Below are positions 11,638-41,104 of a stretch of 64,000 bases of DNA, one piece after another. The stretch's first letter is position 1, and every line of letters starts with the position of its first letter. The notes beneath the pieces were generated by a model that was not told where the DNA came from, ran no database searches, and saw only the letters and a list, made by a program, of their open reading frames with translations. Both the position numbers and the translations under genes were made by a program. Source of the stretch: an uncultured Candidatus Saccharibacteria bacterium (GTDB lineage Bacteria; Patescibacteriota; Dojkabacteria; SC72; JAFGCJ01); NCBI GenBank assembly GCA_964481345.1, contig CAYZTC010000001.1, positions 142,188-206,187 of the forward strand. Reading direction: 5' to 3'.

Positions 11638-12360
11638 GTGAACGTCTTCATTATTGAAGACTCCCCTACAATAACCCTCATTCTAGAAAGAACACTCAGT
11701 TCATACGGATACATTCCTCTTTGTCACACAAGTGACACCTTCTCAACAAAATTCCTTAAAGATAAACCTCATGAATTTTTTATTATGGATACAAATCTAT
11801 ACAAAGCAGACAGCCTAGAAATCTGTTCAAAAATAAAAGAAGTATGTCCATCTGCATACGTCATAGGTATAAATCATAGAGGAACATGGAAAGACAGAAT
11901 AGAATTTTTAAAAAGTGGTGCAGATGACTGTATTTCGTACCCTTTTCCACCAGAAGAAATACTTGTAAGAATCCAGGCCCTTCTAAGAAGACCCAAAAAA
12001 TATATCTCAAGTAACCTAAAATATGGGAAATTCTTGATTGACACATATAATCAAGAAGCCTTCTACAACAGTAGATTACTTAAACTTTCTAAAAAGGAAT
12101 ACCAAATACTTGAGTATTTTATTCGAAATAAAGAAAGGAAAGTCTCAAGATCTGAATTACTTGATCATGTATGGGACTACCGTAAATCAAGCAGCTCTAA
12201 TACAGTAGATGTTCATATCACAAAGCTTAGAAGGAAAATTACAAAAGCTAAAAACAAAAGATATCTCAACAAAGATAATTTTCAACAAAACTCTGAAATA
12301 CAAACGATATACGGAGTAGGATATCAACTTAAAGATAATTTCGAAGAAAAAGGAAGCTAA
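11638..12360 (+). CDS. OmpR/PhoB-family response regulator (receiver + winged-helix)
   Basis: 240 aa; receiver motifs (IMDTNL, KSGADDCISYPF) and C-terminal trans_reg_C-like region (ELLDHVWDY...VDVHITKLRRKI); GTG start. Confidence 0.75.
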   Translation: MNVFIIEDSPTITLILERTLSSYGYIPLCHTSDTFSTKFLKDKPHEFFIMDTNLYKADSLEICSKIKEVCPSAYVIGINHRGTWKDRIEFLKSGADDCISYPFPPEEILVRIQALLRRPKKYISSNLKYGKFLIDTYNQEAFYNSRLLKLSKKEYQILEYFIRNKERKVSRSELLDHVWDYRKSSSSNTVDVHITKLRRKITKAKNKRYLNKDNFQQNSEIQTIYGVGYQLKDNFEEKGS

Positions 12361-13499
12361 TCTATCCTCATAGGCATTATTATATGTAGGTAGTTTTCAT
12401 CCTTTTCTGACTTAAACACACCAGGTGCTGTAGAGTTACTACTCTCCATTATCATAGTCTCCCCCTCGATACAGGAAAGCATATCACTAAGAAACTTTGC
12501 ACTAAATCCAATCTCTAGCTTATCACCCTCCACTTTAGCCTTGAAACTACTCTCATTTTCACCCACCTCTACAAGTGCTGCCCCTACCTTCACTTCACCT
12601 TTTTTAGGGTCTATTTCTATTATTGCCTTATTTCCAATTACATTTCTTGCAAATATATTTACTATTCTCACAGCATTTCTAAACTCATCTGTGTCTACTT
12701 CTACCCTTGTCTGATACCCAGTAGGAATTATTTGCTTATACTCTGGAAACTGACCGTCTATCAATCTTGACGTAAGATCAACTTCCTTATATCTAAGTAT
12801 TACCTGATTTTTGCTTTTTAAAAGGTAAACCTCTACATAATCCTTCTTTTTTGAGTCTCCATCCTCATACAGATCACCTATTATTCTTGCTAACTCCTGC
12901 ATTGTTCTTGCTGGTATTAATAGATCCAAAGATTCTTTAGTACTCTTCTCAAGCTCTATAAACTGTCTTGCAAGCCTAAACCCATCCACAGATATCAGGG
13001 TTAACTTTTTTCCATCCACCTCTACTTTTATACCTGTAAGTACTGGTCTAGACTCATCAGATGCCGAAGCTATTGCTACTCTATTTATAGCATTTTGTAT
13101 TTCCTCTGGTTTAACCGAAAAAAGAAGATTCCCGTCCTCTATACTTGGAACTTTTGGAAAATCATCGGCTGGTAAAGTGTTAAATTGAGCAGAATTGTTC
13201 TTCGTTGTTACCTTTAGAATCTGCTTATCTAAAGTAAGATCAACTTTTTCCGAAGGCAGTGAGTTTACAAATTCGGAAAAAGTTCTCGCTGGAATTGTTA
13301 TTATTCCTTCTTCTTTTGCTTCAGCACCAATCCATGTATGTACCCCCATCTCTAGATCAGTTGCTGTTAGCTTAAGCTTGCTACCCTCCGCCTCTACTAA
13401 TACATTAGCAAGGATTGGAAGTCCCGGTTTACTACTTACTAATCTTCCCACTATACCTAACTGCTTAGCTAAACTAATTTGATTACAACCAATCTTCAT
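12357..13499 (-). CDS. dnaN: DNA polymerase III beta sliding clamp
   Basis: 380 aa, typical DnaN N-terminus MKIGCNQISLAKQLGIVGRL..PILANVLVEA. Confidence 0.9.
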   Translation of the reverse strand: MKIGCNQISLAKQLGIVGRLVSSKPGLPILANVLVEAEGSKLKLTATDLEMGVHTWIGAEAKEEGIITIPARTFSEFVNSLPSEKVDLTLDKQILKVTTKNNSAQFNTLPADDFPKVPSIEDGNLLFSVKPEEIQNAINRVAIASASDESRPVLTGIKVEVDGKKLTLISVDGFRLARQFIELEKSTKESLDLLIPARTMQELARIIGDLYEDGDSKKKDYVEVYLLKSKNQVILRYKEVDLTSRLIDGQFPEYKQIIPTGYQTRVEVDTDEFRNAVRIVNIFARNVIGNKAIIEIDPKKGEVKVGAALVEVGENESSFKAKVEGDKLEIGFSAKFLSDMLSCIEGETMIMESSNSTAPGVFKSEKDENYLHIIMPMRID

Positions 13500-13956
13500 A
13501 AAAAGATACTCACAAAATTATGTTTGGGCAGACTAATATAACGTAAGTTTTTTAATACAGTAATAGTATATAGTAGGCGGTGTGGAATTGTCCAGAAATA
13601 TTGATTGAGTACTGATAATACAACGTTTTTATAGAGTTCTTTATTGTCGAAAACTTTTATTTTGGTAATACTTCCAGTAGAGGTGTCTATTTGGTTGTTT
13701 TGATAGTATTTTCCTAACAAAAGAAATAGTGAAGAGAAAGAATTTCCCTTATCTATAGATATATTAACGATGTAAAACGTTTTGTGGATAACTTTTGGAA
13801 AAGTTGTTGATAAACAACATATGTTTAGTTTTTATCCATTACTGAGATTAGCTTTGAGATGGGGAACTTTTAATGGTTGTAGGTAAATATGTTAAAAGAG
13901 AGACCCGTTATTATTGCAGGCACTGTCCACAAAATGTGTCCTATTGTCCACAATAT
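13500..13956. promoter_or_regulatory. oriC half (DnaA-box cluster + AT-rich unwinding region) upstream of dnaN
   Basis: TGTGGATAA at 13783-13791, TTATCCATT 13832-13840, TGTCCACAA at 13924-13932 and 13945-13953; AT-rich stretch ~13600-13700. Confidence 0.6.
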
Positions 13957-15387
13957 TTAAGATGAGGTTTTACTTTGGTAGAGAGGTATTTCAAAATAAA
14001 ATATTGATCCTTTCCCTTTTTCACTTTTAACCCCTATTTTTCCTTTGTGCGCTTCTATAATGTTTTTTGAGACATATAGACCTAGTCCAGTACCGCCTGT
14101 TCTTACAAGAGAGTTTTGGTCTCCTCCGGTATATGGGTCTATCCTCGAGAATTTTTGAAAAAGCTCATCCTGATCCTTTTTATCAATCCCTCCCCCTGTA
14201 TCTCTTACTGACATTTTCAGAGAGCTTTGGTCTGATATTATTTCTATTTCTATGTATCCCTTGTTAGTATATTTAATGGCATTATTTAAAAGGTTATCAA
14301 TAACCTCTCTTATCCTTACTTTGTCTACTTCAGCGTGGACTTTGTTTTTAGGCTTGTCAAACTCTATTGATAACCCTTTTTCATTAGCAAGGGGGGTAAC
14401 GTCTTTAATTGCTTCACTAACAATATCTACAAAATCATGGGTGTCGATCTGGAGAACAAAATACTCATTGTCTATCCTTGTTGTTTCGAGGAAGGAATTT
14501 ATTATTTGTATTTGCCTTTCTATGCTGTCAATTAATCGTTGGAGATACGTTTTAACTTTGGAGTCAATGGCCTTTGGACTTTCTTTTTTAAGATAATCTT
14601 GCAACATATGGAGGTTTGTCTTAATAACGGACGCAGGTGTTCTGATTTCATGGCCTGCCATATCCATTAAATTCTTCTCTTTCTGATATAAAGCCTCAAG
14701 GTCATCATATAGTTTTTGAAGTTCTTTATTTTTTGACTGGAGAGATTCCGTTGCCTTGTCGATCTTTTGCTGAAGAGTTTCATTAAATGATTCAACTTCT
14801 TTATATAGAAGTGCTCTACCAATCGCTATAGAAGTATTGTCGATGATGCTTTTTAGAAGGGAAGTCTCTTTCCCCTTTGGTATTTTCTTATCGCTTGACT
14901 CTCCAAATAGAAAGAGCCCGGAATATTTAGCTTCCTTAGTCATTGGAATCACTATTTGGATATTGTGCTTCTTCATGATTTCTAATACTTCCATTTTTTG
15001 ATTTGATATCTTGTTACTTGAGTCTTCTCCAATGAGGAAGAGCTCATCTTGGAGAATAAGAGTTTTGTCGCTGTTACTGGAATAGAAGTATTTTGCAAGT
15101 TTTTTTAGCTGGTGAATATCTGGAATTTTTACCTGTTGGCTTTGTTCATAAATGATCTTCTTTTCGTCTGTATCTAATAGGACAACAGCAGATGAGGAAA
15201 TATTGAAGGTGCTATTTATTATTGAAATGAAGAGAGTGGCGATTGCATCAAGATCAAGTTCTGAGGAAAATGTGCTTGTAGAGTACAGCCTGCTTGCCGC
15301 CTTGCTCTTACGTTTAGCGAACGTGTAAAGAGACAGGGCTAGAGAGATAATTCCTGTTATTATTATTGAAACATTCTCAATTCTCAT
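13957..15387 (-). CDS. Sensor histidine kinase (HisKA + HATPase_c)
   Basis: 476 aa; H-box MAGHEIRTPASVIK, N/G-box NLLNNAIKYT...GGTGLGLYVSK; N-terminal TM. Confidence 0.85.
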   Translation of the reverse strand: MRIENVSIIITGIISLALSLYTFAKRKSKAASRLYSTSTFSSELDLDAIATLFISIINSTFNISSSAVVLLDTDEKKIIYEQSQQVKIPDIHQLKKLAKYFYSSNSDKTLILQDELFLIGEDSSNKISNQKMEVLEIMKKHNIQIVIPMTKEAKYSGLFLFGESSDKKIPKGKETSLLKSIIDNTSIAIGRALLYKEVESFNETLQQKIDKATESLQSKNKELQKLYDDLEALYQKEKNLMDMAGHEIRTPASVIKTNLHMLQDYLKKESPKAIDSKVKTYLQRLIDSIERQIQIINSFLETTRIDNEYFVLQIDTHDFVDIVSEAIKDVTPLANEKGLSIEFDKPKNKVHAEVDKVRIREVIDNLLNNAIKYTNKGYIEIEIISDQSSLKMSVRDTGGGIDKKDQDELFQKFSRIDPYTGGDQNSLVRTGGTGLGLYVSKNIIEAHKGKIGVKSEKGKGSIFYFEIPLYQSKTSS

Positions 15388-15487
15388 AGGACAGTTTATA
15401 AGTGTAAGTCTAAAGGTATTATAGTGGACAGGCTAAACTTTTTGAAATGTCTTTGTGGTGATGAAAACATCAGTTTTAAAAAATTCG

Positions 15488-15507
15488 TGGGAGTTATTTT
15501 TTGACTC
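15488..15507 (-). terminator. Hairpin GGAGT-N10-ACTCC downstream of dnaA stop, with T-run
   Basis: gggagttattttttgactcc palindrome followed by a T-run on the minus strand. Confidence 0.35.
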
Positions 15508-15532
15508 CTGTGTTGGGGTATAAAGCCCTTAT

Positions 15533-16972
15533 TCATAGCTCTATATTGTGAATTTTTTCCTTGAGTGTTTCATCCTCCTCCATCTTCTCTTCTATCCTAT
15601 CTACGGCATTGAGAACAGTCGTATGGTCATTCCTATTTAGTTCTCTTGCAATTCTCTCAAGTGGAAGGTCAAGCTCCTTTCTCATAAGGTACATGCATAT
15701 ATGTCTAGGTACCACTATCTCCGATGTTCGTCTTTTACCCCTAATATCTTTTACTGAAATCCCAAACTCTTTACTTACATTTCTGATGATATCTCTTGGA
15801 GATGTTTTCTTCCTTTTACTAGCAGAGTCTATATGAAGCATCATTGCAACTTCCTCTTGTGAGGGAATTGTTCCTCCTATTTTTACATGAGTACCTACCT
15901 TAATTAACGCACCTTCAAGTTCTCGGATATTGTCATCAAACTCTTTAGCCACAAAGTTAAGGATGTAGTCTGGAAGGAAGATTCCTTTATCATCAGCCTT
16001 TTGCTTTATTATTGCTATTCTAGTCTCATAGTCTGGTGCAGAAATATCGGCTACCATTCCACCTTCAAACCTAGACTTCAGTCGATCAGTTAGTTTTTCA
16101 ATTTCTCTTGGTGGGCAGTCCGAGGCTAGTACGATCTGTTTACCAGTTTGGTATAGGGTGTTGAAAGTGTGAAAAATCTCAGTCTGTGCCATGTCCCAGT
16201 TTGATATAAACTGGATGTCGTCTATCATTAATATATCAAGCTTTCTGTACATGTTCCTGAATTCGTTAGTATTGCCCTTTCTTATAGAATTAACCATCTC
16301 GTTTAAGAAAGATTCGCTTGGACAATAAAGAACTTTTTTGTTTGGATCTCTGTTTATTACTCTGTTTGCAATAGCATGCATTAGGTGAGTTTTTCCTAAT
16401 CCAACTCCTCCATAAATAAAAAGTGGATTGTATGATCTTCCAGGGTTGTCAGAGACAGCATCGGCTGCAGCATGGGCAAGTTTGTTGAAAGACCCAACGA
16501 CGAAGGTTTCAAATGTATATAGTGGGCTTACGTTCCCCTTTTCTCTTGCATCATCTACGAGATTTTGGTGAGTATATGGAATGTTAAAAATGGGTGCCTC
16601 GTTTGGGGAAATTGTTGTGCCATCATATCTGCTTTTTACTTTTTCTTCGCCACCATCTATTTCAAAGACAATGTCGATGTCTCTACCGGTAATTTCCTCC
16701 AGTAAGTTTTTGATAAGTTTGTGGTGATTTGAGTCAAGCCATTCTCTTGCAAAATTAGAGGGGCATGATATTGTAGCAATTCCATTTTCAACTTGTGCTA
16801 GTTCAGTATTTTTAAACCAAGCTGAAAAGTTCTGCGAGGTTATCTTCATCTGAATTTTTTCAAGTGCAATCTTCCAAACCTCGTTTGTATCAATAACCTT
16901 TTCCTTAGATCCTTTAGTGTTTGGAGTCTTCAATTTTTTTACAATAGTCTTTAGTCGGGGCAGATGGGACAA
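15533..16972 (-). CDS. dnaA: Chromosomal replication initiator DnaA
   Basis: 479 aa; Walker A GGVGLGKTHLMHAIAN, C-terminal DNA-binding domain. Confidence 0.95.
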   Translation of the reverse strand: MSHLPRLKTIVKKLKTPNTKGSKEKVIDTNEVWKIALEKIQMKITSQNFSAWFKNTELAQVENGIATISCPSNFAREWLDSNHHKLIKNLLEEITGRDIDIVFEIDGGEEKVKSRYDGTTISPNEAPIFNIPYTHQNLVDDAREKGNVSPLYTFETFVVGSFNKLAHAAADAVSDNPGRSYNPLFIYGGVGLGKTHLMHAIANRVINRDPNKKVLYCPSESFLNEMVNSIRKGNTNEFRNMYRKLDILMIDDIQFISNWDMAQTEIFHTFNTLYQTGKQIVLASDCPPREIEKLTDRLKSRFEGGMVADISAPDYETRIAIIKQKADDKGIFLPDYILNFVAKEFDDNIRELEGALIKVGTHVKIGGTIPSQEEVAMMLHIDSASKRKKTSPRDIIRNVSKEFGISVKDIRGKRRTSEIVVPRHICMYLMRKELDLPLERIARELNRNDHTTVLNAVDRIEEKMEEDETLKEKIHNIEL

Positions 16973-17172
16973 ATCCTGTTAGGATAGGACAAGTGGAATG
17001 TATCACCTTGTGGATAAGTTTTCAAACCCTTAGTGTGAAATTATGAAATTATGTTGTTGAATAGAAAGTTATCCACATGAAATATTAGCTATAATTTCGA
17101 TAGAGAGTTTTTCCATGTGAGGGAAAGTACATCCTTGAGCATTACAAAACCATATGATAAACTCCTTTCGCA
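16973..17172. promoter_or_regulatory. Second oriC half / dnaA-rpmH divergent promoter region with DnaA boxes
   Basis: TGTGGATAA at 17010-17018 and TTATCCACA at 17069-17077. Confidence 0.55.
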
Positions 17173-17358
17173 ATGCCAAAGAGAACCTATCAACCCAAAA
17201 AGAGAAGAAGACTTAAAGTACATGGATTTAGAGCTAGGATGAAAAACCCTGGAGGAAGAAATATTTTAAAAAAAAGGAGGGCTAAGGGAAGGAAGGTCCT
17301 TACAGTATCGGATGAGTTTAGAATCCTCAAAAAGAAACCAAAATCTAGAAACAAATAA
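17173..17358 (+). CDS. rpmH: 50S ribosomal protein L34 (with ~15-aa basic C-terminal extension)
   Basis: [23 protein letters not shown]...[11 protein letters not shown] matches the L34 family. Confidence 0.85.
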
Positions 17359-17702
17359 TGCTTTCAAAGGAACACAGGCTAAAAAAAACCTCTAGTTTTC
17401 AAAAAGCTCATAAGCTTGGTAAACATATCTCTGGAAAAATTGGAAGAGTAATCATTTATAATCGAAAAGATAATAGCCCATCAAAATTTGGTGTTGTAAT
17501 ATCAGCCGATAGAGGAAATGCGGCAAGACGAAACACTGCTAAAAGGAGGATAAGGCACATTTTTAGGGAAATTTGTAGTAATGTTAAGGATGGATATGAC
17601 ATTTTTTATGTAATTTGGAATGTGGAATTTAAGTATGTTGAAGCTAAATTTGAGATTGAAAAAATGTTGAAAGATGAAATACATACTAATGGGGATAATT
17701 AA
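17358..17702 (+). CDS. rnpA: Ribonuclease P protein component
   Basis: 114 aa, basic, conserved position after rpmH; RnpA-like KRRIRHIFRE. Confidence 0.85.
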   Translation: MLSKEHRLKKTSSFQKAHKLGKHISGKIGRVIIYNRKDNSPSKFGVVISADRGNAARRNTAKRRIRHIFREICSNVKDGYDIFYVIWNVEFKYVEAKFEIEKMLKDEIHTNGDN

Positions 17703-22858: not shown

Positions 22859-25207
22859 TTACAGCAAATTCTCCACTAGTTTTTTGAATTCTTTTAATTT
22901 CTCCTCAATTTTTTTCTTATCAATCTGGGAATTTCCTTGGAGTATTACAAGTATATCCTTTGTGTCGGTTGTAATTTTTGTTCTATCGCATTGTTTTACT
23001 GTAAGTCTGCATATTACACCTTTATCATCAATGTAACAGTATTCTCCTTTTTTAGCCGTCATTTTTTCATCATTTCCCATTTGAGTAAATTCTTGATCTT
23101 CTTTTAACATCACCAACTTTACATTTCCAACTATTTTTGACATATCGTGTGCGCCAAATGTAATTCCAGATTCGATTGAAAAGATGTTGTATAGGTCGAC
23201 AAATGTATTTATATTGGGGATATTTCCCTTCTCCAGAAGCAATTCAGTAAGTTTTTCACTTGCGGCCGGAAGGTTCTTTTCCTTTGAATACATGTCATGT
23301 TGCTCTCTGTATGCCTTATTTTCTGGAATGGCGGAAATGTCTTGTTTTTCATATTTTTTAATTAGTTCCTTTTGCTTTTCTTCCATCCATTTTTTTAAGG
23401 TTGAACTTTGTCTTTTGATGTTCAAGTTCTTAATTATTGTCCATGTGATTGGGATATCCTTTTTAAGATTTTCATTCTGAACTAGTTCAAAATTTGAATA
23501 GTCAACGGTTTTCACATTCTCTGTTACTGGGTCAATTTTATTAAAGAGTACTTCTGGCTTTTCTTTTATTTTGATATTCTTTAATTCTTCAAATTTCCAG
23601 CCTTCATCTTCATATTCAATGTTCAAAAGTCTGAATATTTTGTCGGATATTTCTGGCATGAATGGCCTCGATGTTATCGCCAAGGCCTTTATGATTTGAA
23701 TACAGTCATATATTGTCTGGCTGCACTTTTGTGGATCTGACTTGAGTGTGGCCCAAGGTTGATTCCTATCAAAATATTTATTTCCAAATTGGGCAAGTTC
23801 TATAAAGCTGTCAGTTGCTTTTGAAAACTCACATTTTTCGATAAGATCACCGACCCCTTTAATTGACTTGTCTATTGCGTTTTTGACCTCTGTGCTTATG
23901 GTCAGTTTTTCTTCGATTATTCCATCGAGTTTTGAAAATACAAAGTAGAGATTTCTATTTATAAAGTTCCCGAAAGTTGCGACAAGTTCATTATTATTTA
24001 GATCTACGATATCCTTATACGTGAACTTTCGATCGTGGTTTTCAGGTGCATATTTGCAGAAGAAATATCTCACTAAATCTGTACCGTACTGATCTAACAG
24101 TAAATCTGCTTCAAGTAATGTGCCTTTGCTTTTTGAAATTTTTGTTCCTCTTTCAGTAAGAAACTGGTTTGCAGGTATATTGTATGGAAGATTTAGTGGT
24201 TCGGCTCTTGTTTCTCCAGGCAAACTTGGCTCATATTTTCCATTTTTATATTTCTTGTTGTATGCAATTATTATTGCTGGCCATAGTATTGTATGAAACG
24301 GAATATTGTCTTTGGCGATGAAGTAGAAATGCTTTGCCTTAGGGTTTTTCCAAAAGTGTTCCCATTTACTTGGATCTTTGCTTTTACTTGCCCACTCGAT
24401 GGATGCGCTTAGATATCCCATTACTGCCTCAAACCATACGTATATGTCTTGGTCTTTGTATTTTTCGATTGGGATATCAACTCCGTACCCTATTTTTCTT
24501 GACACGGCCCTTTCTCTTAGTCCCTCTTTTAACCATGATTGAGCAAATCCTATTACCCTTTCTCTCCAAACATTTTTACTGTTTTTAACTAATTCTCTTA
24601 TCTGTTTATCAAACCTGGGTAGATCAAAAAATAACACTGTATGTTTTTTCAGTATAGGTTTTTCTCCCGTAAGTTTACTTTTGGGGTTTTTTAGATCTGA
24701 AGGATCAAGAGTTCTTTCACAGCCATCATTGCACTGATCGCCTCTTGCTTTTGTGTTGCCACAATATGGGCATGTGCCCTCGATATATCTGTCTGCTAGA
24801 AACTGTTTTGCTTTTGGATCGTAGTACTGTTCGACTTCTTTTGGGTATATGTCTTTGTTTTCGTACATTACTTTAAATAGGTTTTGTGCGATCTCTTTGT
24901 GGTTTTGTGATTCTGTAGTAGTAAAGATGTCCCATTGAGTATTTAGTTTTTTAAATGTTTCTAGAAAGGATTTACTGTACTTTTCTGCAAGTTTATCTGG
25001 CGGCAGTCCTTCTTTTTGGGCTTTTACTGTAACAGGAGTTCCGTGTGCATCAGCACCGGAGACCAAAAGTACGTCATTACCTTTTTGTCTGTGGTATCTT
25101 GCAAAGACATCGCATACCACATTTTGTCCTGCGAGATGACCAATATGTAACTTTGAGTTAGCATATGGCCAGGAAACACCTATAAATATTGTTTCTTTGA
25201 TTTTTAT
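22859..25207 (-). CDS. metG: Methionyl-tRNA synthetase; 5' end extended beyond ORF-track start (25120) to include HIGH motif; start codon non-canonical/uncertain
   Basis: Zn knuckle CPYCGNTKARGDQCNDGCE, KISKSKG; manual translation upstream of 25120 gives ...IKIKETIFIGVSWPYANSKLHIGHLAGQNV in frame with no ATG/GTG/TTG before the stop at 25238-25240. Confidence 0.8.
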   Translation of the reverse strand: MKIKETIFIGVSWPYANSKLHIGHLAGQNVVCDVFARYHRQKGNDVLLVSGADAHGTPVTVKAQKEGLPPDKLAEKYSKSFLETFKKLNTQWDIFTTTESQNHKEIAQNLFKVMYENKDIYPKEVEQYYDPKAKQFLADRYIEGTCPYCGNTKARGDQCNDGCERTLDPSDLKNPKSKLTGEKPILKKHTVLFFDLPRFDKQIRELVKNSKNVWRERVIGFAQSWLKEGLRERAVSRKIGYGVDIPIEKYKDQDIYVWFEAVMGYLSASIEWASKSKDPSKWEHFWKNPKAKHFYFIAKDNIPFHTILWPAIIIAYNKKYKNGKYEPSLPGETRAEPLNLPYNIPANQFLTERGTKISKSKGTLLEADLLLDQYGTDLVRYFFCKYAPENHDRKFTYKDIVDLNNNELVATFGNFINRNLYFVFSKLDGIIEEKLTISTEVKNAIDKSIKGVGDLIEKCEFSKATDSFIELAQFGNKYFDRNQPWATLKSDPQKCSQTIYDCIQIIKALAITSRPFMPEISDKIFRLLNIEYEDEGWKFEELKNIKIKEKPEVLFNKIDPVTENVKTVDYSNFELVQNENLKKDIPITWTIIKNLNIKRQSSTLKKWMEEKQKELIKKYEKQDISAIPENKAYREQHDMYSKEKNLPAASEKLTELLLEKGNIPNINTFVDLYNIFSIESGITFGAHDMSKIVGNVKLVMLKEDQEFTQMGNDEKMTAKKGEYCYIDDKGVICRLTVKQCDRTKITTDTKDILVILQGNSQIDKKKIEEKLKEFKKLVENLL

Positions 25208-25284
25208 GGTAGTAAAAATTTGATTGTTACAATAGGATTATACAAAGATTGCCATTTTTTAACAATAAAATCTATAATATCTTC

Positions 25285-25725
25285 ATGTCCATAGAACTAT
25301 TTCAACAGTATTGCAAACAAAATAAAATAGAGGTTGATGTTCTTAATGAGGGGTCTACAACTCATACAGCGAGGGACTCGGCGAAAACTCACGGTATTGA
25401 CTTGAACAGGATTGTTAAATCATTATTGATCAAAATTGGAGGTGAGTTTTGTGTTTTTCTTGTGCCAGGTAACAAAAGGTTAGACTTTAAATATCTTGAG
25501 GAACGTTTTGGTACGGAGGATATTAGAATGGCAACTGCAGACGAGGTGAAGGAGATGACCGGTTATTCTATCGGAGGTGTTCCACCTTTTGGGCATAAGA
25601 AAAAGTTGAAAACGCATATTGAAGATGGTTTTCCAGCCAGTAAGCAACTGTTAGCAGCAGCTGGAAGAGAAGATTCTGTGTTTTGGGTAGGTTTGGATAA
25701 GTTGAAAGAGATTGCCGCTGGCTAG
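25285..25725 (+). CDS. YbaK/ProX-type aminoacyl-tRNA deacylase (start may be 25249)
   Basis: MSIELFQQYC...GYSIGGVPPFGHKKK matches YbaK deacylase domain. Confidence 0.7.
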   Translation: MSIELFQQYCKQNKIEVDVLNEGSTTHTARDSAKTHGIDLNRIVKSLLIKIGGEFCVFLVPGNKRLDFKYLEERFGTEDIRMATADEVKEMTGYSIGGVPPFGHKKKLKTHIEDGFPASKQLLAAAGREDSVFWVGLDKLKEIAAG

Positions 25726-25760
25726 ACTCATAGTGTGTTTTCGTGAGATAATTCCATACG
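25721..25760. repeat. Repeat element A copy 1 (gctggctagactcatagtgtgttttcgtgagataattcc), promoter-like (TAGACT-N18-GATAAT) 25 bp upstream of gene
   Basis: Identical 40-mer recurs at 27022-27060, a degenerate third copy ~27905-27945. Confidence 0.7.
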
Positions 25761-25783
25761 TTTAATGTTTTTGGCTGGATATT

Positions 25784-26785
25784 ATGTCTCCGCAAGAAGA
25801 ATTAGATGATTATATTGCTGGCAGTGAGGATCGTGATCCATTACTAACCTTTCTGCCCCTGGGACTACCTGATATGTTCGGGCAAGAAATCATCGCTAGT
25901 CCCGATAATAAGAAATTTGAGATTATTATTCACAATGATCCTGGAGGCCACAGACCAATTGATATTTTCGAAAAGGTTGTCGGTTTCACATATGAAGTGT
26001 TGATTAATGCAAAGCGAGTTAGTGTGTGTGGGTCCTCTTTCTGCAAAGAAGACGGTAAGGAAAATATTGGAAAGATAGATAAGTTTAACGAAGACCTTGT
26101 TCTTTTCCTCCAAAAAGGGGTAATGTCGAAGTTTTTATATGATGCATTTCCCGATAATGGACTCAGAAGATCCTTTTTGGGTCGTATTATTCTTGGAGCA
26201 CCGCGGGAAATATCTATTGACTGGTATGAAAATTCACAGGAAGAGGCAGAAAAAAGAAAAAGGGAAGAAGAAGCTTTTGGATCGTTAGTAGAAATGGATC
26301 CATTAGTCGTTATGAGAATGGTGGGGGATTTCTGCTCTGAGATACCTTTAAGATATAAACAAATAATACGGAAGGAAGGGAAGAATACAGCAAATGGATC
26401 TGGACGTGTTTCTATTGCAATAACCAAGAAGGAATTTACGCTCATAAAGTATTTTGCACATAAGTTCGAACAATTCAGCCGTTTGGATGGCGTTGGTAAA
26501 CATCGCTCATTTAAGCCAGGAGGTAAATATCGTTCAAAAAAGCCAAGAGGAAGAAGAGGGAGGGAAATTATGGACCTAGAACAAAACGAGATAAAAAACA
26601 TGCTCGAATCGAATAAAGAAGCTTTATCTCCAAGGGAGAGAATCATACTTGAGTTAAGGTTTGGTCTTCAGGGTAGAGAACCAAGAACTCTTGAGGAAGT
26701 GGGAGAAAAGTTTAACTTAACAAAACAAAGAATTAAACAAATTGAAGCAAAAGCATTAGAAAAGTTAGAAGACGCATCTACTTAA
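25784..26785 (+). CDS. Sigma-70 region 4 domain protein (stand-alone r4 HTH fused to novel N-terminal region)
   Basis: C-terminus [48 protein letters not shown] is ~75% identical to region 4 of RpoD encoded at 41101-42243; no regions 1.2-3 present. Confidence 0.6.
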
Positions 26786-26917
26786 GAATTTAGCAATAGT
26801 TGAATATGTATAAACGTTGTGCAACGGCATATATTAATGATTTCCAACTTGAGGTGTTCGTAATTCCTATTTTTCCTTTTTTATAACAGCATAATTGGTA
26901 GGTGCTATCTTGAGAGA

Positions 26918-27021
26918 ATAAGAAAAGAAGAAAAGGTCAGTGAGATTTTTTGGGTTTTGTCCCCATATAGGTTTTTTAGCCAAACCACGAATTCCTTTAT
27001 CCCACTGACCATTTTGTTATC
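26918..27021. repeat. Repeat element B copy 1 (~100 bp nested inverted-repeat element) directly fused to element A copy 2
   Basis: gaaaagaagaaaaggtcagtgag...cccactgaccattttgttatcgctggctag; outer arms ggtcagtgag/cccactgacc; second copy at 27805-27915. Confidence 0.7.
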
Positions 27022-27060
27022 GCTGGCTAGACTCATAGTGTGTTTTCGTGAGATAATTCC
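27022..27060. repeat. Repeat element A copy 2
   Basis: Exact 39/40 match to 25721-25760; 30 bp upstream of ORF 27092. Confidence 0.7.
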
Positions 27061-27091
27061 CCTATCAACTAATTTCTGCATTTAATTAATA

Positions 27092-27781
27092 ATGAACTCC
27101 ATAAATGGAGGGACGAATGCTAGGAAACAAGGTTCAAGTCCTACTGAAAGAGGGGATGCAATTACTCCCATAGTCATTAATTTTTCGATGAAAGAAATTG
27201 AAAAGTGCATCAATAGTGCGGAGAAAAATCCATATGGTAGTTATTTAATAGATGTTTCTGGTGGCAATGATAGTGATGGATATGTAGACTCTTTTTGGGG
27301 TGCGGAGAACCATCTAAAAGTTTGTTTGGGGCAATATTTAGGCAGTAGAGAAAAGATCCAAAAATTGGCTGAAAGTTATGATGGTATTGAAATTTTTTAT
27401 AGGCATGTATCAGAATTTTTAGAAAATGGATTAATAAGTACTGGGTTCTACAAAAAGTTTGGAAGAGATTATTTGTTTTTGAAGTACTATGCCATGTATC
27501 TTATATTAAATAGAGATAGAGTCCTTATCCGTTACGGAGAGGAGAAGAAAAAGTCTCGGGCGCAAATCAGGCTATATGAATTGGAGAGAAAACATGGAAA
27601 CTTAGTAAATTTGGACAGCATTGACAAAATGCATCAATCTAAGGCTGCGATAGGGAGAGTCAGGCGGAAACTTCAAAGAGATCGTAAAATACAGATTAGT
27701 GCTTGTGATTACAAGGTTTTGAGTTTGTATATAGATTTGATAAAGCCATTTTTTCGTATGAGCCTTGACGACAAAGAGTAG
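27092..27781 (+). CDS. Hypothetical protein
   Basis: 229 aa ORF flanked by repeat A (upstream) and repeat B (downstream). Confidence 0.5.
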   Translation: MNSINGGTNARKQGSSPTERGDAITPIVINFSMKEIEKCINSAEKNPYGSYLIDVSGGNDSDGYVDSFWGAENHLKVCLGQYLGSREKIQKLAESYDGIEIFYRHVSEFLENGLISTGFYKKFGRDYLFLKYYAMYLILNRDRVLIRYGEEKKKSRAQIRLYELERKHGNLVNLDSIDKMHQSKAAIGRVRRKLQRDRKIQISACDYKVLSLYIDLIKPFFRMSLDDKE

Positions 27782-27804
27782 TGTTGTCGTTTTATTGAAA
27801 ACAT

Positions 27805-27915
27805 TAAGAAAAGAAGAAAAGGTCAGTGAGATTTTTGGGTTTGGTTCCCGTACGGGCTTGCTAACCAAACCACAAATCCCTTTATCCCACCGACCTTCTG
27901 TTATCGCTAGCTAGA
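27805..27915. repeat. Repeat element B copy 2 (inner palindrome cccgtacggg; inner arms gggtttggtt/aaccaaaccac)
   Basis: ~85% identical to 26918-27021 with indel in apical region. Confidence 0.7.
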
Positions 27916-28181
27916 AACTATGGATCACTTACTTTCGGTGATCATTTTTCTCTCCCACACCACGTGTAGGTCTCGTTCGCGTCTTCTTTCTCTCCTCTTT
28001 TTTGTGATCAGAGTTACGCTGTTTAGTTCCTTTTTTGCACATATATACTCCTTTGCAATTTGTGCCCTCCGACCGGGGGTTTTACAATGAGCTAGCGACA
28101 TGAGCTATAGGATATACTCTTATACCCCATTCTGTCAATATTCTGTTGTTCATAAAATATTTCTGGTAATATTTCTATTGA

Positions 28182-29207
28182 ATGGGAATACCTCTGAAAA
28201 TCGCAAAAATTGTAGGAAAAGTTCTACTTGGGTTTTTAGGTTTGATAGTGATCTTCTGGATTGTTTTATCAATACTGTCCCCTTTTGGAATTCCAGAAGG
28301 GAATAGTGTTGACTATATGAAAGGGGTATGGATGCCTGATCCGCGAGAGCATTTTTCTGCCTATTTCAATATGGAACGTTTGAGGGAAGATGGAGTGAAC
28401 ACAATTTCCCTTGGTCCCCTTGCCTACAATAAATTACTAGCGACTATTCACAGACCGTTCATTTCAGCGATAGTAAAAAAAGCACATAAAAATGGTATGG
28501 CGGTTCATATTGCCCCAAATAGCTGGGGTCCAGGATTTAGTCATGAAGATCCACACATTGAAATGGAAGATTTGCTTACAGAACAAGCTATTTACTGGGC
28601 AGAATTTGCTGAACAGTACAATGTGGAATATTTTTCTCCTCAGAATGAACATGATGTTGTACTTGGATGTGGGTTTGGTGCAAAGTGGGCCCAGGATATT
28701 TTGGATGATATTCGAGAGGTATATTCAGGTGAGATAATACTTAAAATTGGATCGGTATACTGTGAAGCTGATCCAGATTATCAAATAGAAATAAAGTCTT
28801 TAGGAGATGAAAATAGCTTCTGGCCAGGCAAATTTTCGGATGCTACGGGATACGACTATTTCATGATAGATATATTGCCATTTAGTGATGATGTGGATAG
28901 GGATTTGTTTTTGGAAGATCTTGAAAATATATTGGGGTATGCAAGACAGGAGGTTGAAAGGAAAGAATTGAAGGGGTTTATGATAGGTGAATTTGGATAT
29001 CTGACCGAAAAGCCTGCGATGGTTGCAAGTATTATGCCTGGACCAGAATTAACAGAAGAGGAACAGGCTCAAGGAATTGAGGACTATTTGGAGGTTGCAA
29101 TGCCAATGGTTGATGGAATAGTATATTGCGGCTGGACTCTAGATGGATATGGATTTAAGGACAAACTTGCCGAAGATGTAATAAAAGAAAAATTTAGTTC
29201 ATACTGA
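28182..29207 (+). CDS. Membrane-anchored putative glycoside hydrolase (TIM-barrel, GH5/GH113-like)
   Basis: 341 aa; N-terminal TM, then motifs NTISLGP, ...FSPQNEHD suggestive of clan GH-A catalytic NE[PH] motif; weak. Confidence 0.4.
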   Translation: MGIPLKIAKIVGKVLLGFLGLIVIFWIVLSILSPFGIPEGNSVDYMKGVWMPDPREHFSAYFNMERLREDGVNTISLGPLAYNKLLATIHRPFISAIVKKAHKNGMAVHIAPNSWGPGFSHEDPHIEMEDLLTEQAIYWAEFAEQYNVEYFSPQNEHDVVLGCGFGAKWAQDILDDIREVYSGEIILKIGSVYCEADPDYQIEIKSLGDENSFWPGKFSDATGYDYFMIDILPFSDDVDRDLFLEDLENILGYARQEVERKELKGFMIGEFGYLTEKPAMVASIMPGPELTEEEQAQGIEDYLEVAMPMVDGIVYCGWTLDGYGFKDKLAEDVIKEKFSSY

Positions 29208-29246
29208 GGAGCACATGTGAGGCAGAGTGCCCCTCAGAAAGAACTC

Positions 29247-29675
29247 TTATAGATGAATAGAAACGTAATATCGCTGTTGCCAGAGGTAAAAGATTTCCTC
29301 AAAATCTAAAATATGTTTCTCTGGGAAGAAAAGTTCCCAGTTTTTCTGAGTGGATAATCCGATGATATACATCGGTAGTTTGGGTAATGTTTTTCCGTCA
29401 GAAAAAGAGATAATCTTTTGATTGTATCTAACAACAATTAAATATCTTGGGCCATCTCTAGAGGGTAGAAATTTGTCCCTTCTTGTTTCGGACCCTCTCA
29501 TTATGATCTCCAACTCCTTGTATGGATCTTCTGAAACCCAGACATTTCCAGTATGGAGAGGAGAAACGTGAGATTTTTCAGCTTCTGATAACAATGCCAA
29601 TCCTAGACCTTTTAGTATAGCCTTATACTTCCAGTTTAATCTCGCGGTTTCTAAAAATGCAATTATTTCCGCCAT
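29247..29675 (-). CDS. Hypothetical protein
   Basis: 142 aa ORF. Confidence 0.4.
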   Translation of the reverse strand: MAEIIAFLETARLNWKYKAILKGLGLALLSEAEKSHVSPLHTGNVWVSEDPYKELEIIMRGSETRRDKFLPSRDGPRYLIVVRYNQKIISFSDGKTLPKLPMYIIGLSTQKNWELFFPEKHILDFEEIFYLWQQRYYVSIHL

Positions 29676-29770
29676 TTCTTCTTCTCCTTTCGTTTTTTAA
29701 GAGCTTTAGAGGATTATATGTTTTCTATGGGGTACTTGGCAATATCATTGTTGTAATACTGATATAATCT

Positions 29771-32558: not shown

Positions 32559-32616
32559 GTACAGGCAGCAAAAAAGGGCAATTCCAACAGATGTTCATGT
32601 TGTGAACCGCCCTTTT
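32559..32616. terminator. Cassette terminator T_A: bidirectional hairpin (aaaaagggc...gccctttttc) with A- and T-runs on both sides
   Basis: Stem aaaaagggc / gccctttttc enclosing caattccaacagatgttcatgttgtgaacc; paralogous to hairpins at 37647-37694 and 38445-38496. Confidence 0.6.
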
Positions 32617-32634
32617 TCTCTTTTGCTCATTTCT

Positions 32635-33144
32635 TTACTCGTCTAACCAACGTTGAACAACTTTCCTTGTCTCTAAAACAAGTGCTTCAACGTTTTGTCC
32701 ATCAAGGACCTTCAATACCGTGATGCTTACGGAAAGTTTCGTAGAAACTTTCCAATGTTCAGTCGTGAAAACATAGTATCTCGGATTGTCGTCATGTATG
32801 ATAATTTTTGAAAACATGATTGGCTTTCCAATATACTCTAACGTTGGGTCGTTGTCCGAGAGACGTGGGTCACTATATCTGTGTCGGGGTTGTATAGGTA
32901 TTTCAGTTAACCCATGCGATAAACCTGCTTCGCGAATACCTTTGTCTTCAACCACATATATTCTGTCGACCATCCTCGTTCCGTTAATGAGTTCCCTCAC
33001 GGTTGGAATTCGTAAGAGCCAGTCAATCTGTAAGGTCTCAACAGAAATTGTCGAAACCTTCTTGTAGTAATGTTCATCTCCCAGAGCTAGTAAGCCCAAG
33101 AACACGAAATCATCTACATAACCTAACCATTTTTTCTTTCTCAT
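32635..33144 (-). CDS. Cassette ORF A, hypothetical protein (~169 aa; true start ATG at 33142-33144 with SD GGAGG, not the GTG at 33231)
   Basis: ORF track 32635-33231; upstream 29 codons lie in the conserved non-coding leader (equivalent region in copy C carries a stop). Confidence 0.5.
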   Translation of the reverse strand: MRKKKWLGYVDDFVFLGLLALGDEHYYKKVSTISVETLQIDWLLRIPTVRELINGTRMVDRIYVVEDKGIREAGLSHGLTEIPIQPRHRYSDPRLSDNDPTLEYIGKPIMFSKIIIHDDNPRYYVFTTEHWKVSTKLSVSITVLKVLDGQNVEALVLETRKVVQRWLDE

Positions 33145-33149
33145 CGGAA

Positions 33150-33344
33150 CCTCCGATATGAGTGTTATCCTTGGATTTTCCACGTCACCGACGGGAAGGA
33201 GTAACACTACCTTCCTATGTTCCAAAAACACAAAAAGGTAATGTCACTTACAAGGATTTTTGTATAAGAGCAAAAGAGAAATTGATGTAATTGGGGCAGC
33301 CATCAATCTGGGGTGATTGTACTATGGGATGGATATTTATTCAA
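33150..33344 (-). promoter_or_regulatory. Cassette leader L_A: promoter TTGAAT-N17-TACAAT (-35 at 33339-33344, -10 at 33316-33321) plus conserved ~165-nt structured 5' leader
   Basis: ~85% identical to 38984-39191 and (first ~70 nt) 38190-38258; begins with palindrome ATTGATGG-N12-CATCAAT. Confidence 0.6.
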
Positions 33345-37695: not shown

Positions 37696-38070
37696 CTAAA
37701 TAATTTTGAGTCGAATATCTGTTACTGGATATCCGTAATATTCTCCTCTTATTTTTTCTCGGAACACAAAAGGTTGAATGTGTACTGGGGTCAGGAGTAT
37801 TTTTCTATTAGGGGAATGTTCAAAACAGACAATTCTCACAAAGGTGTCATCAGAAAGGAATCTTCTTATTGGTTTGTAGTATGTCCATTTACCGTTACGA
37901 TTCATGTGTCTGAAGGATACTACATTATCCAATCGTTCTAATCCTCTGTAGATTTCTACCAAAGACCCCTTCTTTAGTAAGAATTCGTTTTGTCCTTTTC
38001 TATGTTGACGACGGGCTATTTTTTTAGCTCGAGGTCTTAATAAGTAAGTCCACAACTCTTTAATATTCAT
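37696..38070 (-). CDS. Cassette ORF B, small basic hypothetical protein (~124 aa; start ATG 38068-38070 with SD GGAGAA)
   Basis: ORF track gives 37696-38220 but N-terminal 50 codons overlap conserved leader; internal Met MNIKELW has SD. Confidence 0.45.
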   Translation of the reverse strand: MNIKELWTYLLRPRAKKIARRQHRKGQNEFLLKKGSLVEIYRGLERLDNVVSFRHMNRNGKWTYYKPIRRFLSDDTFVRIVCFEHSPNRKILLTPVHIQPFVFREKIRGEYYGYPVTDIRLKII

Positions 38071-38258
38071 TTTGCTTCTCCGTTTATTTTCTTTTTCAAA
38101 AGATGATAAGTTCAGTTCCCCCGTTCTATCCACGAGGTGTGAACAGGATGGGAGAACCAAATAAATGAGAATATTGTATAAGAGCAAAAGCAAAATTGAT
38201 GTAATCGGGGTAGCCATCAATGTAGATGGATTGTACTATGGGATAATAGAAATATCAA
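38071..38258 (-). promoter_or_regulatory. Cassette leader L_B: promoter TTGATA-N17-TACAAT (-35 38253-38258, -10 38230-38235) plus leader sharing first ~70 nt with L_A/L_C
   Basis: Sequence alignment of three copies; palindrome ATTGATGG-N12-CATCAAT retained. Confidence 0.55.
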
Positions 38259-38444: not shown

Positions 38445-38496
38445 GCAAAAAAGGGGGTCATAACAGATGTTCATGTCATGAACACCCCTTTTTTCT
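38445..38496. terminator. Cassette terminator T_C (aaaaagggggt...acccctttttt hairpin enclosing palindrome gttcatgtcatgaac)
   Basis: Strong GC stem with flanking A6 and T6 runs; 5 bp from ORF C stop. Confidence 0.6.
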
Positions 38497-38500
38497 TTTG

Positions 38501-38983
38501 CTACTTATTTTTCAGTACAATAACATTGTACCGTGGAATGATATTCAAAATACCCGTCTCTTCTTGGTAAGTTGTTTGGACATAGATATATCTAACAACC
38601 TTACGGAAGTGAAATTGGGGTAAATTTTGGATTGGCTCCCCGTGTACAATAATTCTTTTCCGAATAATTGGGAATTTCTTAAGGAGACCACTCAAAATAT
38701 TGCTCACTGCTCGTTGTTCTTTTTGAGCTGGTATCTTCAGTATATCCCATTCCTCCTTCGGATTTGTACTTTCTCTAACGGAATATATATTTTCCGTAGT
38801 GAAGATGCCAGTATCTGCATTGTATTCATCAACAAGGGTTCTATTGAACCATTCCTGATTCATGATACCAACCGTTATTGATTCTCCTTTTTGTAAAAAA
38901 ACTAGAGCACCTCTTCGTATCTTCAGAATCCTCCTTAATTCGGAGAACTCTTTTAACAATCCGGAAAGCTTTTGTTTATTCAT
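38501..38983 (-). CDS. Cassette ORF C, hypothetical protein (160 aa)
   Basis: ATG with SD GGGAGG 5 nt upstream; sits between L_C and T_C. Confidence 0.5.
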   Translation of the reverse strand: MNKQKLSGLLKEFSELRRILKIRRGALVFLQKGESITVGIMNQEWFNRTLVDEYNADTGIFTTENIYSVRESTNPKEEWDILKIPAQKEQRAVSNILSGLLKKFPIIRKRIIVHGEPIQNLPQFHFRKVVRYIYVQTTYQEETGILNIIPRYNVIVLKNK

Positions 38984-39191
38984 GGAAACCTCCCGTCTCC
39001 CTTTCTAAGTGTTATCCTTTGATTTTCCACATCACGTGGAAGGAGTAACACTACCTTTATATGTTCCTAGGAACACATGAAGGTAATGTCACACATCAAG
39101 GATATTTGTATAAGAGCAAAAGAGAATATTGATGGAATTGGGACAGCCATCAATCTGGGTGGATTATACTATGGGGTGATAGAAATGTCAA
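38984..39191 (-). promoter_or_regulatory. Cassette leader L_C: consensus sigma70 promoter TTGACA-N17-TATAAT (-35 39186-39191, -10 39163-39168) and ~170-nt conserved structured leader, 36 bp downstream of tmRNA 3' end
   Basis: Perfect consensus hexamers with 17-bp spacer; leader begins with perfect palindrome ATTGATGG-N11-CCATCAAT. Confidence 0.65.
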
Positions 39192-39227: not shown

Positions 39228-39638
39228 TGGTGGAGACGGTGGGAATTGAACCCACGTCCAAAAGAATCGTCAAATGCAATGATACAAGCTTAGTCAGTTT
39301 GACTAATCAAGGATTTAAAAACTGACAAAATAATCCCTGAAGAGGTGATTTTAAAAATTCTCAGGTTGGGCTCACCTGGTTACCCTTCCTGTATATCCCG
39401 AAAATGAACGAGCTTTAGATACCTCATCGGGAAGAAGTGACCCAAGCTCACAGTGGAATTACCCTACTGACATGTTCATGTTGAGACCAGCAAAAGCTGA
39501 GTTAACACCTGCTGCAAATTTCTTTGCTGCTAGTTGAACACGGTTTTTAAGTGAATCTGCACTTATTTTTTGTTTTTAAGAGCGATTACTCTGCTTGGTG
39601 CATAGGACTTTAGCTTTTGTCGAAGCCTTGTCGTCCCC
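39228..39638 (-). ncRNA. ssrA: tmRNA (ssrA), one-piece, ~411 nt
   Basis: 5' GGGGACGACAAGGCTTCGAC... pairs with 3' ...GGGTTCAATTCCCACCGTCTCCACCA (tRNA-Ala-like acceptor with G3:U70, T-arm, encoded CCA); TATAAT boxes just upstream at 39651-39666. Confidence 0.8.
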
Positions 39639-40885: not shown

Positions 40886-41104
40886 ATGACTAAAAGATTA
40901 CTAGGAATAATAATTTTTTCAGTATTGACTGTTGTTATATGGATTGGATTTGAGGTATGGATGAGGCTTGGTTCTCAGGAAATACAGTTGAACTATGAAA
41001 ACTATCTTCAGACTGTAGATTCAGAGTTTGATTCAGAAACGATAGATGAACTTGTGACAAGGGAGGAAGAGTATATGCTTATAGATCGTGACGACTTGGA
41101 CTAG
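40886..41104 (+). CDS. Small membrane-anchored hypothetical protein
   Basis: 72 aa ORF with N-terminal TM, follows pilO. Confidence 0.35.

Follow-up and report, generated by a model that had tools for sequence, protein, structure and literature searches.

A Probable Local Duplication in a Two-Gene Tandem Array between ybaK and a Putative Convergent RNA Gene of a Patescibacteria-Type Bacterium

Introduction

Short genes followed by imperfect palindromes of about 100 nt, arranged in tandem and with a short core sequence at their boundaries, are the typical layout of integron cassettes with their attC sites, and integrase-less attC clusters also exist. Imperfect palindromes of similar size are otherwise found in dispersed repeats, such as repetitive extragenic palindromes (REP) and the bacterial interspersed mosaic elements (BIME) that contain them, enterobacterial repetitive intergenic consensus (ERIC) sequences and Correia elements, and the latter can also carry promoters. 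A similar appearance can result from a tandem duplication by unequal crossover. Here, we analyse a locus to which these three models can be applied: in a 64-kb stretch of contig CAYZTC010000001.1 (hereafter “the window”, i.e., the whole stretch at its full length), each of two neighbouring genes, gene1 and gene2, is preceded by the same 40-nt element (element A) and followed by a nested hairpin of about 100 nt (element B), immediately downstream of a ybaK-like gene. Our analyses indicate that this locus is probably the product of a local duplication in a two-member tandem array of a fast-diverging, lineage-restricted gene family, located between ybaK and a convergent RNA gene on the minus strand.

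Results

Anatomy of the Locus

The features on which the argument relies are listed below in window coordinates:

25249–25725, plus strand: ybaK-like aminoacyl-tRNA editing gene (Pfam tRNA_edit, E = 2.8e-26).
25716–25755, plus strand: first copy of element A (A1), with TAGACT at 25723–25728, CATAGT at 25729–25734, TG at 25744–25745 and GATAAT at 25747–25752.
25784–26785, plus strand: gene1, a family domain (residues about 1–240) fused to an RpoD-like sigma-70 region 4 (residues 280–328).
26919–27020, minus strand: first copy of element B (B1), a duplicate of the putative terminator hairpin (79 bits with the covariance model R1).
27021–27060, plus strand: second copy of element A (A2), the putative promoter of gene2; this copy opens with the 11-nt hybrid site (CGCTGGCTAGA) of the junction between B1 and A2.
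27092–27781, plus strand: gene2, probably a strongly diverged member of the gene1 family devoid of the sigma-4 tail.
27805–27901, minus strand: second copy of element B (B2), the putative 3' terminator of a minus-strand transcript (85.6 bits with R1).
27902–28101, minus strand: body of the minus-strand unit (“nc unit”), composed of a closing helix (P1) and a purine-rich interior.
28109–28138, minus strand: putative promoter of this unit, with TTGACA (28138–28133), an 18-nt spacer and TATCCT (28114–28109), i.e., 10/12 matches.

For comparison, contigs of relatives were retrieved via homologs of the methionyl-tRNA synthetase (MetRS) of the window (L141 and L146) and via two remote homologs of gene1 (L153 and L154). 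These relatives add about 100 kb to the window, which brings the total searched for element B to 163 kb.

Three junctions delimit the array. At the end of ybaK, where A1 begins (J0), the sequence reads ...GAGATTGC followed by CGCTGGCTAGA and CTCATAGTG; between B1 and A2 (J1), it reads ...TTTTGTTAT followed by CGCTGGCTAGA and CTCATAGTG; between B2 and the 3' strand of P1 (J2), it reads ...TTCTGTTAT followed by CGCTAGCTAGA and AACTATGG. All three contain CGCTRGCTAGA, and the 11-mers of J0 and J2 are identical at 10 of their 11 positions. As for J1, its left side is like J2 and its right side like J0, with the join falling inside the 11-mer, where B abuts A directly. The relative L153 shows the order ybaK–A–gene–B–RNA and lacks the B1–A2–gene2 segment, so that the window has an extra unit of 886 bp.

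Element A

Element A (CGCTGGCTAGACTCATAGTGTGTTTTCGTGAGATAATTCC) is 100% identical over its 40 nt in the two copies, while 100 shuffles yielded 0 chance matches, and it ends 28 nt before the ATG of open reading frame (ORF) 25784 (gene1) and 31 nt before that of ORF 27092 (gene2), much as reported in the preliminary description of the locus. The coding sequence of ybaK extends into A1: it supplies the first seven nucleotides of the element (CGCTGGC), and its stop codon TAG (25723–25725) forms the first half of the −35-like hexamer. The same overlap is found in L153; in L154, TAGACT begins with the stop codon of the ORF that precedes it.

The element had been called promoter-like, and it does match TAGACT-N18-GATAAT with an extended −10 TG (9/12 in a simple promoter scan). 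Taken alone, this hexamer match is weak because shuffled sequence holds about as many such sites. The element is also conserved: in an alignment of six promoters from four lineages (the window, L141, L153 and L154), TAGACT.ATAGT and TG..ATAAT are invariant, while the intervening 10–11 nt are variable, which yields the family consensus TAGACT-yATAGT-N10/11-TGnnATAAT. The same core is thus kept upstream of homologous genes in three lineages other than that of the window. Moreover, A was found only ahead of members of the gene1 family: among 152 loci, the pattern TAGACTYATAGT-N8–12-TGAGATAAT occurs solely upstream of gene1, gene2 and the L141 homolog, and the successive family genes of L154 are each preceded by their own A. 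No further copy exists in the 64 kb of the window or in the ca. 100 kb from relatives, and scans of viral collections for A and B returned one chance match and nothing else. Judging from its anatomy and conservation, element A would be the own sigma-70-type promoter of the gene family. The invariance of ATAGT beside the −35 hexamer across lineages further suggests an added or overlapping regulator site, or a specialised sigma requirement.

Gene1 and Gene2

At face value, gene1 and gene2 are unrelated, as had been assumed in the preliminary description, since BLASTP yields no match between them and sequence searches with gene2 recover no relatives besides itself. However, family profiles compared with gene2 using hhalign repeatedly gave a signal, whether the profile was built from two sequences (P = 0.0028), from four (P = 0.0058; score 25.4, reached by 1 of 300 shuffles) or from six (P = 0.0018; score 28.5 over 123 columns, z = 7.0, reached by 0 of 120 shuffles). 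The alignments are colinear over 123–140 columns (z range 5.6–7), with gene2 following the family from a central FLxxG...F...IIL motif to a C-terminal I.I(S/T)..(D/E)(Y/F)..L..F motif. Because this profile match comes with a family-specific promoter and a position in the same array, gene1 and gene2 are likely to be paralogous, and the idea of two unrelated genes is not confirmed.

In gene1, the sole Pfam match is Sigma70_r4, and the corresponding tail (26519–26785) is 54% identical to region 4 of the host RpoD (rpoD at 41101–42243, minus strand). The 240 N-terminal residues are homologous to a 278-aa protein of L141 (E = 3e-10), and the only other homologs of this part among 1.84 billion representatives are P0242 and P0243. 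In P0242, a sigma-4-like helix-turn-helix is inserted within the family domain (residues about 212–258), while other members are without it. As the sigma-4 domain is at the tail of gene1, internal in P0242 and absent in others, it appears to have been gained more than once in this family, or else lost repeatedly. Evolution in this family is very fast, gene1 sharing only 24% identity with its L141 homolog, against 65% for MetRS.

Structure prediction recognised the sigma-4 tail alone, the AlphaFold2 model of the N-terminal domain having a predicted local distance difference test (pLDDT) score of 70. A phage sigma fold was considered for this domain and rejected, the matches in BFVD being weak (E about 6e-3, template modelling (TM) score below 0.2). 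Comparisons of the family profile with the host RpoD (hhalign) and with PDB sequences (profile search) were negative.

Element B

Both genes are followed by element B, at 26919–27020 and 27805–27905, very close to where it was first located. The two copies are about 86% identical overall, but this identity is a mosaic: the 5' block matches throughout (32/32), the inner part at 36/48 positions and the 3' arm with its tail at 29/33. The nested inverted repeats noticed at first sight correspond to an outer stem (GGTCAGTGAGAT/ATCCCACyGACC), found in both copies, and to an inner stem (GGTTTGGTT/AACCAAACC), which is intact in B2 only. In B2, the outer stem pairs 27884–27895 with 27821–27832, both the 9-bp stem inside it and the CCCGTACGGG hairpin at the apex are intact, and the U-run corresponds to the plus-strand A-run at 27806–27820. 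B1 retains the outer 12-bp stem (26935–26946 with 26999–27010) and the U-run (plus-strand A-run at 26920–26934), while its inner hairpin is degraded. As already pointed out, the T-to-C difference in the 3' arm (27006 vs. 27891) preserves pairing as G.U on the minus strand only. In agreement with this polarity, B folds more stably on the minus strand in 4/4 copies tested, and the minus-strand fold of 27786–27925 reaches −41.4 kcal/mol (z = −3.7). Read on that strand, B has the anatomy of a terminator, in which an outer stem of 12–16 bp is followed by UUUUCUUCUUUUCUU (B1 and B2) or AGAAAUUUUUAUUUU (L141), this anatomy being weaker in L146 and L153; a simple terminator scan overlooks it, as the loop exceeds 8 nt.

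In L141 and L146, ybaK is immediately followed by a B-like nested hairpin. In L153, such a hairpin comes directly after the gene1 homolog and is itself followed by CGCTAGCTAAAAACTAT, which matches the sequence after B2 in the window. The L153 copies, which were not part of the training set of R1, score 34 and 26.7 bits with this model. Over six copies, 90.8% of the cells are paired vs. 73.8% in shuffles and 34–51% in slid controls, and both sides change in 16 of the 24 pairs, a figure reached by 0 of 500 shuffles in an alignment that is fitted to the model. The suggestion of a structured RNA read from the minus strand is thus strengthened, and B2 would be the terminator hairpin at the 3' end of a minus-strand unit. 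That the shape of the hairpin is conserved with covariation suggests a role beyond termination.

Minus-Strand RNA Unit

B2 and P1 belong to a conserved and structured minus-strand unit of roughly 295 nt (from about 28101 to 27806), which is convergent to ybaK in every syntenic relative (about 7462–7758 in L141 and 3157–3436 in L146). The aligned promoter boxes read TTGACA/TATTCT in L141 and L146, and TATAAT in L153. In the window, folding of the entire unit gives −93.7 kcal/mol (z = −4.35), and RNAalifold recovers both P1 and B, on three as well as on four lineages. P1 pairs 28100–28090 with 27912–27902 and is maintained across four lineages by G-C to A-U, U-A to C-G and C-G to U-A changes, while its G.U pairs would read A.C on the opposite strand. 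For the RNA strand, the P1 duplexes have energies of −17.8, −20.4, −15.8 (L146) and −17.0 (L141) kcal/mol; for the opposite strand, in the same order, the values are −15.8, −20.8, −12.4 (L146) and −8.6 (L141) kcal/mol. The comparison favours the RNA strand.

This helix also accounts for the degenerate third copy of element A (A') that had been noted after B2. The first 11 nt of A' (CGCTAGCTAGA, 27905–27915), a core partly covered by the 3' strand of P1, do resemble A, but the remainder matches at only 17 of 35 positions, i.e., at chance level. A' is the 3' strand of the closing helix of the minus-strand RNA and, as such, a distinct conserved element.

Rfam 15, searched at permissive E-values with the units of the window, L141, L146 and L153, returned chance matches only, and the RNA unit seems undescribed. 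In the window, its interior also holds a Shine-Dalgarno-like motif and an ATG opening a very basic ORF (MCKKGTKQRNSDHKKEERKKTRTRPTRGVGEKNDHRK, about 27950–28063, minus strand), with equivalents in L141, L146 and L153 (34–46 aa for the ORFs with this motif). Since these peptides (34–58 aa), for which Pfam yielded no match, are not alignable between lineages, a conserved small protein lacks support. We therefore describe the unit in cautious terms, as a presumptive small RNA gene, or possibly a small-peptide mRNA, of which B2 would be the terminator.

Three further observations relate to the unit and to translation. First, L153 has two tandem copies of it (2621–2945 and 2998–3197, minus strand). 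Second, a stretch that is perfectly complementary to the 3' tail of 16S rRNA over 12 nt, AAGGAGGUGAUC, is found in the L141 and L146 units and in the second unit of L153, but neither in the window unit nor in the first L153 unit. Third, just 6 of 46 long ORFs of the window have a Shine-Dalgarno motif, and many window ORFs show a TATAAT-like box 5–12 nt before the ATG, a configuration that suggests leaderless or very short-leader mRNAs to be widespread in the window.

From there, two functional scenarios can be put forward, both of them tentative and, in our opinion, somewhat doubtful. Either the unit is a new conserved RNA family of Patescibacteria, acting on ribosomes or translation (because AAGGAGGUGAUC complements the 16S tail and the genome rarely uses Shine-Dalgarno sites) or encoding a tiny basic peptide, or TAGACT-yATAGT is an operator for the sigma-region-4 domain of some family members (e.g., gene1), in which case the whole might be a self-contained and duplicable regulatory module.

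Origin of the Duplication

The preliminary description saw in A and B a modular or REP-like repeat system, while specifying that A and B confined to this locus and flanking paralogous genes would instead indicate a plain tandem duplication. The latter situation is essentially the one that we find: no further B in 163 kb, A only before one gene family, no recombinase or transposase domain in the scanned ORFs and two genes that are probably paralogues. According to our reconstruction, the ancestral order would have been ybaK–A–gene–B–RNA, as preserved in L153, and one unequal crossover between CGCTGGCTAGA (at the ybaK stop and −35 hexamer) and CGCTAGCTAGA (in the closing helix beyond B) would have created an extra B–A–gene unit, leaving the chimeric B1/A2 junction as its product. 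The recombining partners would have carried different members of the family (e.g., those of two strains or alleles), or gene conversion would have homogenised the flanks later on. Nowadays, each A would drive its own gene and B2 would end the minus-strand RNA, whereas B1, which has kept its stem and U-run but has a decaying inner hairpin, would be at most an insulating terminator between gene1 and gene2.

Several results weigh against this reconstruction. The profile signal of gene2 is weak, with an hhalign probability of just 6–15%, and the best of 31 other window proteins scored 22.7 with the four-sequence profile vs. 25.4 for gene2, which is a small margin. The strand asymmetry of B, considered alone, is small too (90.8% vs. 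86.6% of cells paired), and the RNA unit is carried by only three or four lineages, i.e., 4–6 sequences, with a covariation alignment fitted to the model. Regarding copies of B outside the locus, neither the covariance model over 163 kb, beyond the syntenic units, nor blastn-short in the window found any. Matches to the two-arm pattern of B in genome contigs (85, all in unrelated and mostly high-G+C genomes) are about as many as expected by chance, while the 18-mer AAGGTCAGTGAGATTTTT gave 47 single matches in metagenome contigs, with similarity not exceeding about 20 nt, a weak negative given that the own contigs of the window at the Joint Genome Institute (JGI) were not returned. Since such scans of public collections gave chance matches only, the absence of A and B elsewhere in this genome rests on the 64-kb window. 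Finally, A is identical at 40/40 positions and the 5' block of B at 32/32, yet the inner part of B is so at 36/48 only and the genes are unalignable at the DNA level. This mismatch implies that uniform divergence after one simple tandem duplication does not fit, and that diverged partners or gene conversion are needed.

This last point is where the closest rival explanation departs from ours, and it does so in history only. An old and simple intragenomic tandem duplication may have been followed by divergence of the genes under diversifying selection, while purifying selection together with gene conversion kept A and parts of B nearly identical. In this case as well, one unequal crossover would account for the junctions, the very fast evolution of the family (24% vs. 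65% identity for MetRS) would help the genes to diverge, and the mosaic identity of B is what gene-conversion tracts would leave. Yet, the junction looks much younger than the split between gene1 and gene2, because the genes are unalignable between flanks that match at 100% (A) and about 86% (B), and because the inner hairpin of B1, although no longer paired, is still 75% identical to that of B2. Furthermore, the edges between full identity and no similarity at all are sharp, and L153 has the same overall arrangement with a single unit. On balance, we consider such an old duplication to be unlikely.

Much less probable still is that the two units are mobile gene cassettes that entered the 3' end of ybaK by site-specific recombination, with CGCTRGCTAGA as the crossover core and B as an attC-like or attP-arm-like site, whether in an integron array or in an integrase-less attC cluster. 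Admittedly, the 11-nt core occurs at all three junctions in an attL/hybrid/attR-like layout, each gene is followed by an imperfect nested palindrome of about 75 nt, and gene content between ybaK and NT5C varies among relatives. However, the Pfam-scanned ORFs of the window (most of those of at least 100 aa) yielded no integrase, recombinase or transposase domain, and neither did precomputed Pfam lists (17–19 kb and 33–37 kb). Element B is devoid of the R''/R' boxes of attC sites (no RYYYAAC...GTTRRRY), reading instead GGTCAGTGAGAT...ATCCCACyGACC with GTTATCG as its 3' flank, and both B and the core have orthologous counterparts in relatives, within a conserved putative RNA gene that occurs once and at the same place, while A is a conserved promoter-like element in front of homologous genes and not a cassette end. 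Besides, cassette genes are unrelated and mostly promoterless, whereas both cargo genes here appear to be paralogues with promoters of their own. The locus is found, identical, in contigs from several metagenomes, and no empty-site, alternative or duplication-free arrangement was seen among seven such contigs encoding the exact ybaK, gene1 or gene2 proteins. A circular form or a tandem array could be read into L007 (Logan SRR3091743_50548, 916 nt), of which the terminal 30 nt are identical, i.e., an 886-nt cycle A–gene2–B (of the B1 type)–A; this contig was not counted as evidence of a circular element, as it is most simply explained by the 32-nt block common to B1 and B2, which would produce exactly this cycle in a k = 31 graph.

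Lastly, a dispersed repeat of the REP, BIME or miniature inverted-repeat transposable element (MITE) type, or a free-standing structured RNA gene B with its own function, would be in keeping with the size and nested palindrome of B (reminiscent of REP, ERIC or Correia-type elements) and with its minus-strand wobble pairs, which suggest RNA, but is highly improbable, since B occurs only as two window copies and as one copy at each syntenic unit of relatives over 163 kb, with nothing else in the window by blastn-short, since neither inverted repeats at the ends of the B–A unit (TAAGAAAAG... and ...GATAATTCC) nor a target-site duplication are seen, and since B is not autonomous but continuous with a larger conserved unit that includes P1 and a putative promoter.

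Genomic Setting and Other Observations

The window is a segment of core chromosome around the replication origin, of low G+C content (about 37%), which encodes dnaN, dnaA, rpmH-rnpA-yidD-yidC, the leucyl-tRNA synthetase (LeuRS), MetRS, the transfer-messenger RNA (tmRNA), rpoD, dnaG, ftsK and rpoB. Its nearest MetRS relatives are uncultured Patescibacteria-type organisms. The origin region (about 12000–17500) includes dnaN (12357–13499, minus strand), dnaA (15533–16972, minus strand) and, on the plus strand from about 17 kb, rpmH-rnpA-yidD-yidC, while the cumulative GC skew reaches its minimum at about 13–16 kb. In MetRS (22859–25120, minus strand), a C-terminal B3_4 domain replaces the usual tRNA-binding domain, a trait common to the closest relatives.

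Gene orders around the locus, all given in the orientation of the window, are as follows:

Window: ybaK, A, gene1, B1, A, gene2, B2, A' and spacer, 341-aa gene, 142-aa gene (minus strand), NT5C.
L146: ybaK, 332-nt spacer, NT5C.
L141: ybaK, 409-nt spacer, 278-aa gene, NT5C.
L153: ybaK, gene1 homolog P0242, more than 570 nt of non-coding sequence up to the contig end.
L154: gene1-family genes in succession.

The interval from ybaK to NT5C (25726–29770 in the window, 6269–7749 in L141 and 3095–3425 in L146) is a hot spot of gene-content change, with four genes in the window, one in L141 and none in L146. Within this interval, the 341-aa and 142-aa ORFs of the window have no Pfam match; neither have two additional ORFs located between MetRS and ybaK in L141. 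More distant MetRS relatives (L147, L148, L150, L151 and L152) show no ybaK synteny and no B.

Another repeat, of 76 nt, occurs at 33255–33330, 38169–38244 and 39102–39177, just upstream of three minus-strand ORFs (32635–33231, 37696–38220 and 38501–38983) beside the tmRNA gene (39228–39638, minus strand). Further sites of this system, the first of the two, are found at 32571–32617 and 38447–38493, as well as at 36347, 37606 and 38407. The three proteins encoded after the repeat have no mutual BLASTP similarity, and the repeat may act as a common promoter or leader of strongly diverged paralogues, i.e., the same phenomenon as that described above.

Discussion

Our results suggest that a putative promoter and a putative terminator were duplicated locally, in a single event, and that this gave the locus the look of a modular repeat system, which calls for caution whenever repeats are seen to bracket relative-less genes in reduced genomes. 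For Patescibacteria (also known as the candidate phyla radiation, CPR), of which the promoters are poorly known, the locus provides a putative promoter motif that is well defined and strongly conserved, a small family of genes in which sigma-region-4 domains may have been picked up more than once, and an unannotated, structurally conserved putative RNA gene lying beside ybaK, near the replication origin.

Comparison with Known Systems

Among described systems, tandem duplication by unequal crossover at short direct repeats, which yields paralog arrays with a promoter retained by each copy, is the closest: here too, the unit is bounded by near-identical 11-mers, with a hybrid site at the new junction, the duplicated genes probably belong to one family, and relatives show arrays with the same promoter. 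The difference is that the flanks of the present units are far more similar than the genes that they enclose, so that the copies would already have differed when the event took place, or homogenisation of the flanks would have followed.

Likewise, both elements have well-known counterparts. Like the extended −10 sigma-70 promoters (TGnTATAAT), element A has an 18-nt spacing, a TG two bases upstream of the −10 hexamer and a location 30–35 nt before the start codons; unlike them, its −35 hexamer is TAGACT instead of TTGACA and the ATAGT that comes one base after is also invariant. As for element B, it shares with the intrinsic terminators of small RNA genes, and with those that act bidirectionally between convergent genes, a stem containing G+C, a U-run, an A-rich other side and a position between convergent units. 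Yet, its hairpin is of unusual length, spanning about 75 nt (a 12-bp outer stem, a 9-bp inner stem and an apical mini-hairpin), its shape is conserved with covariation, and its plus-strand T-run is weak, and absent in relatives.

The two remaining systems look alike mostly from a distance. REP/BIME, ERIC and Correia-type repeats are comparable to B in size and in their imperfect palindrome, but B is not dispersed, lacks terminal inverted repeats and target duplications, and is an orthologous single copy in relatives. Integron cassettes with their attC sites share the general layout of the array, i.e., tandem units of a short gene and an imperfect palindrome of ca. 100 nt, with a short core at the boundaries, whereas here neither IntI nor R''/R' boxes were found, the genes would have their own promoters and be paralogous, and the palindrome lies within what appears to be a resident RNA gene.

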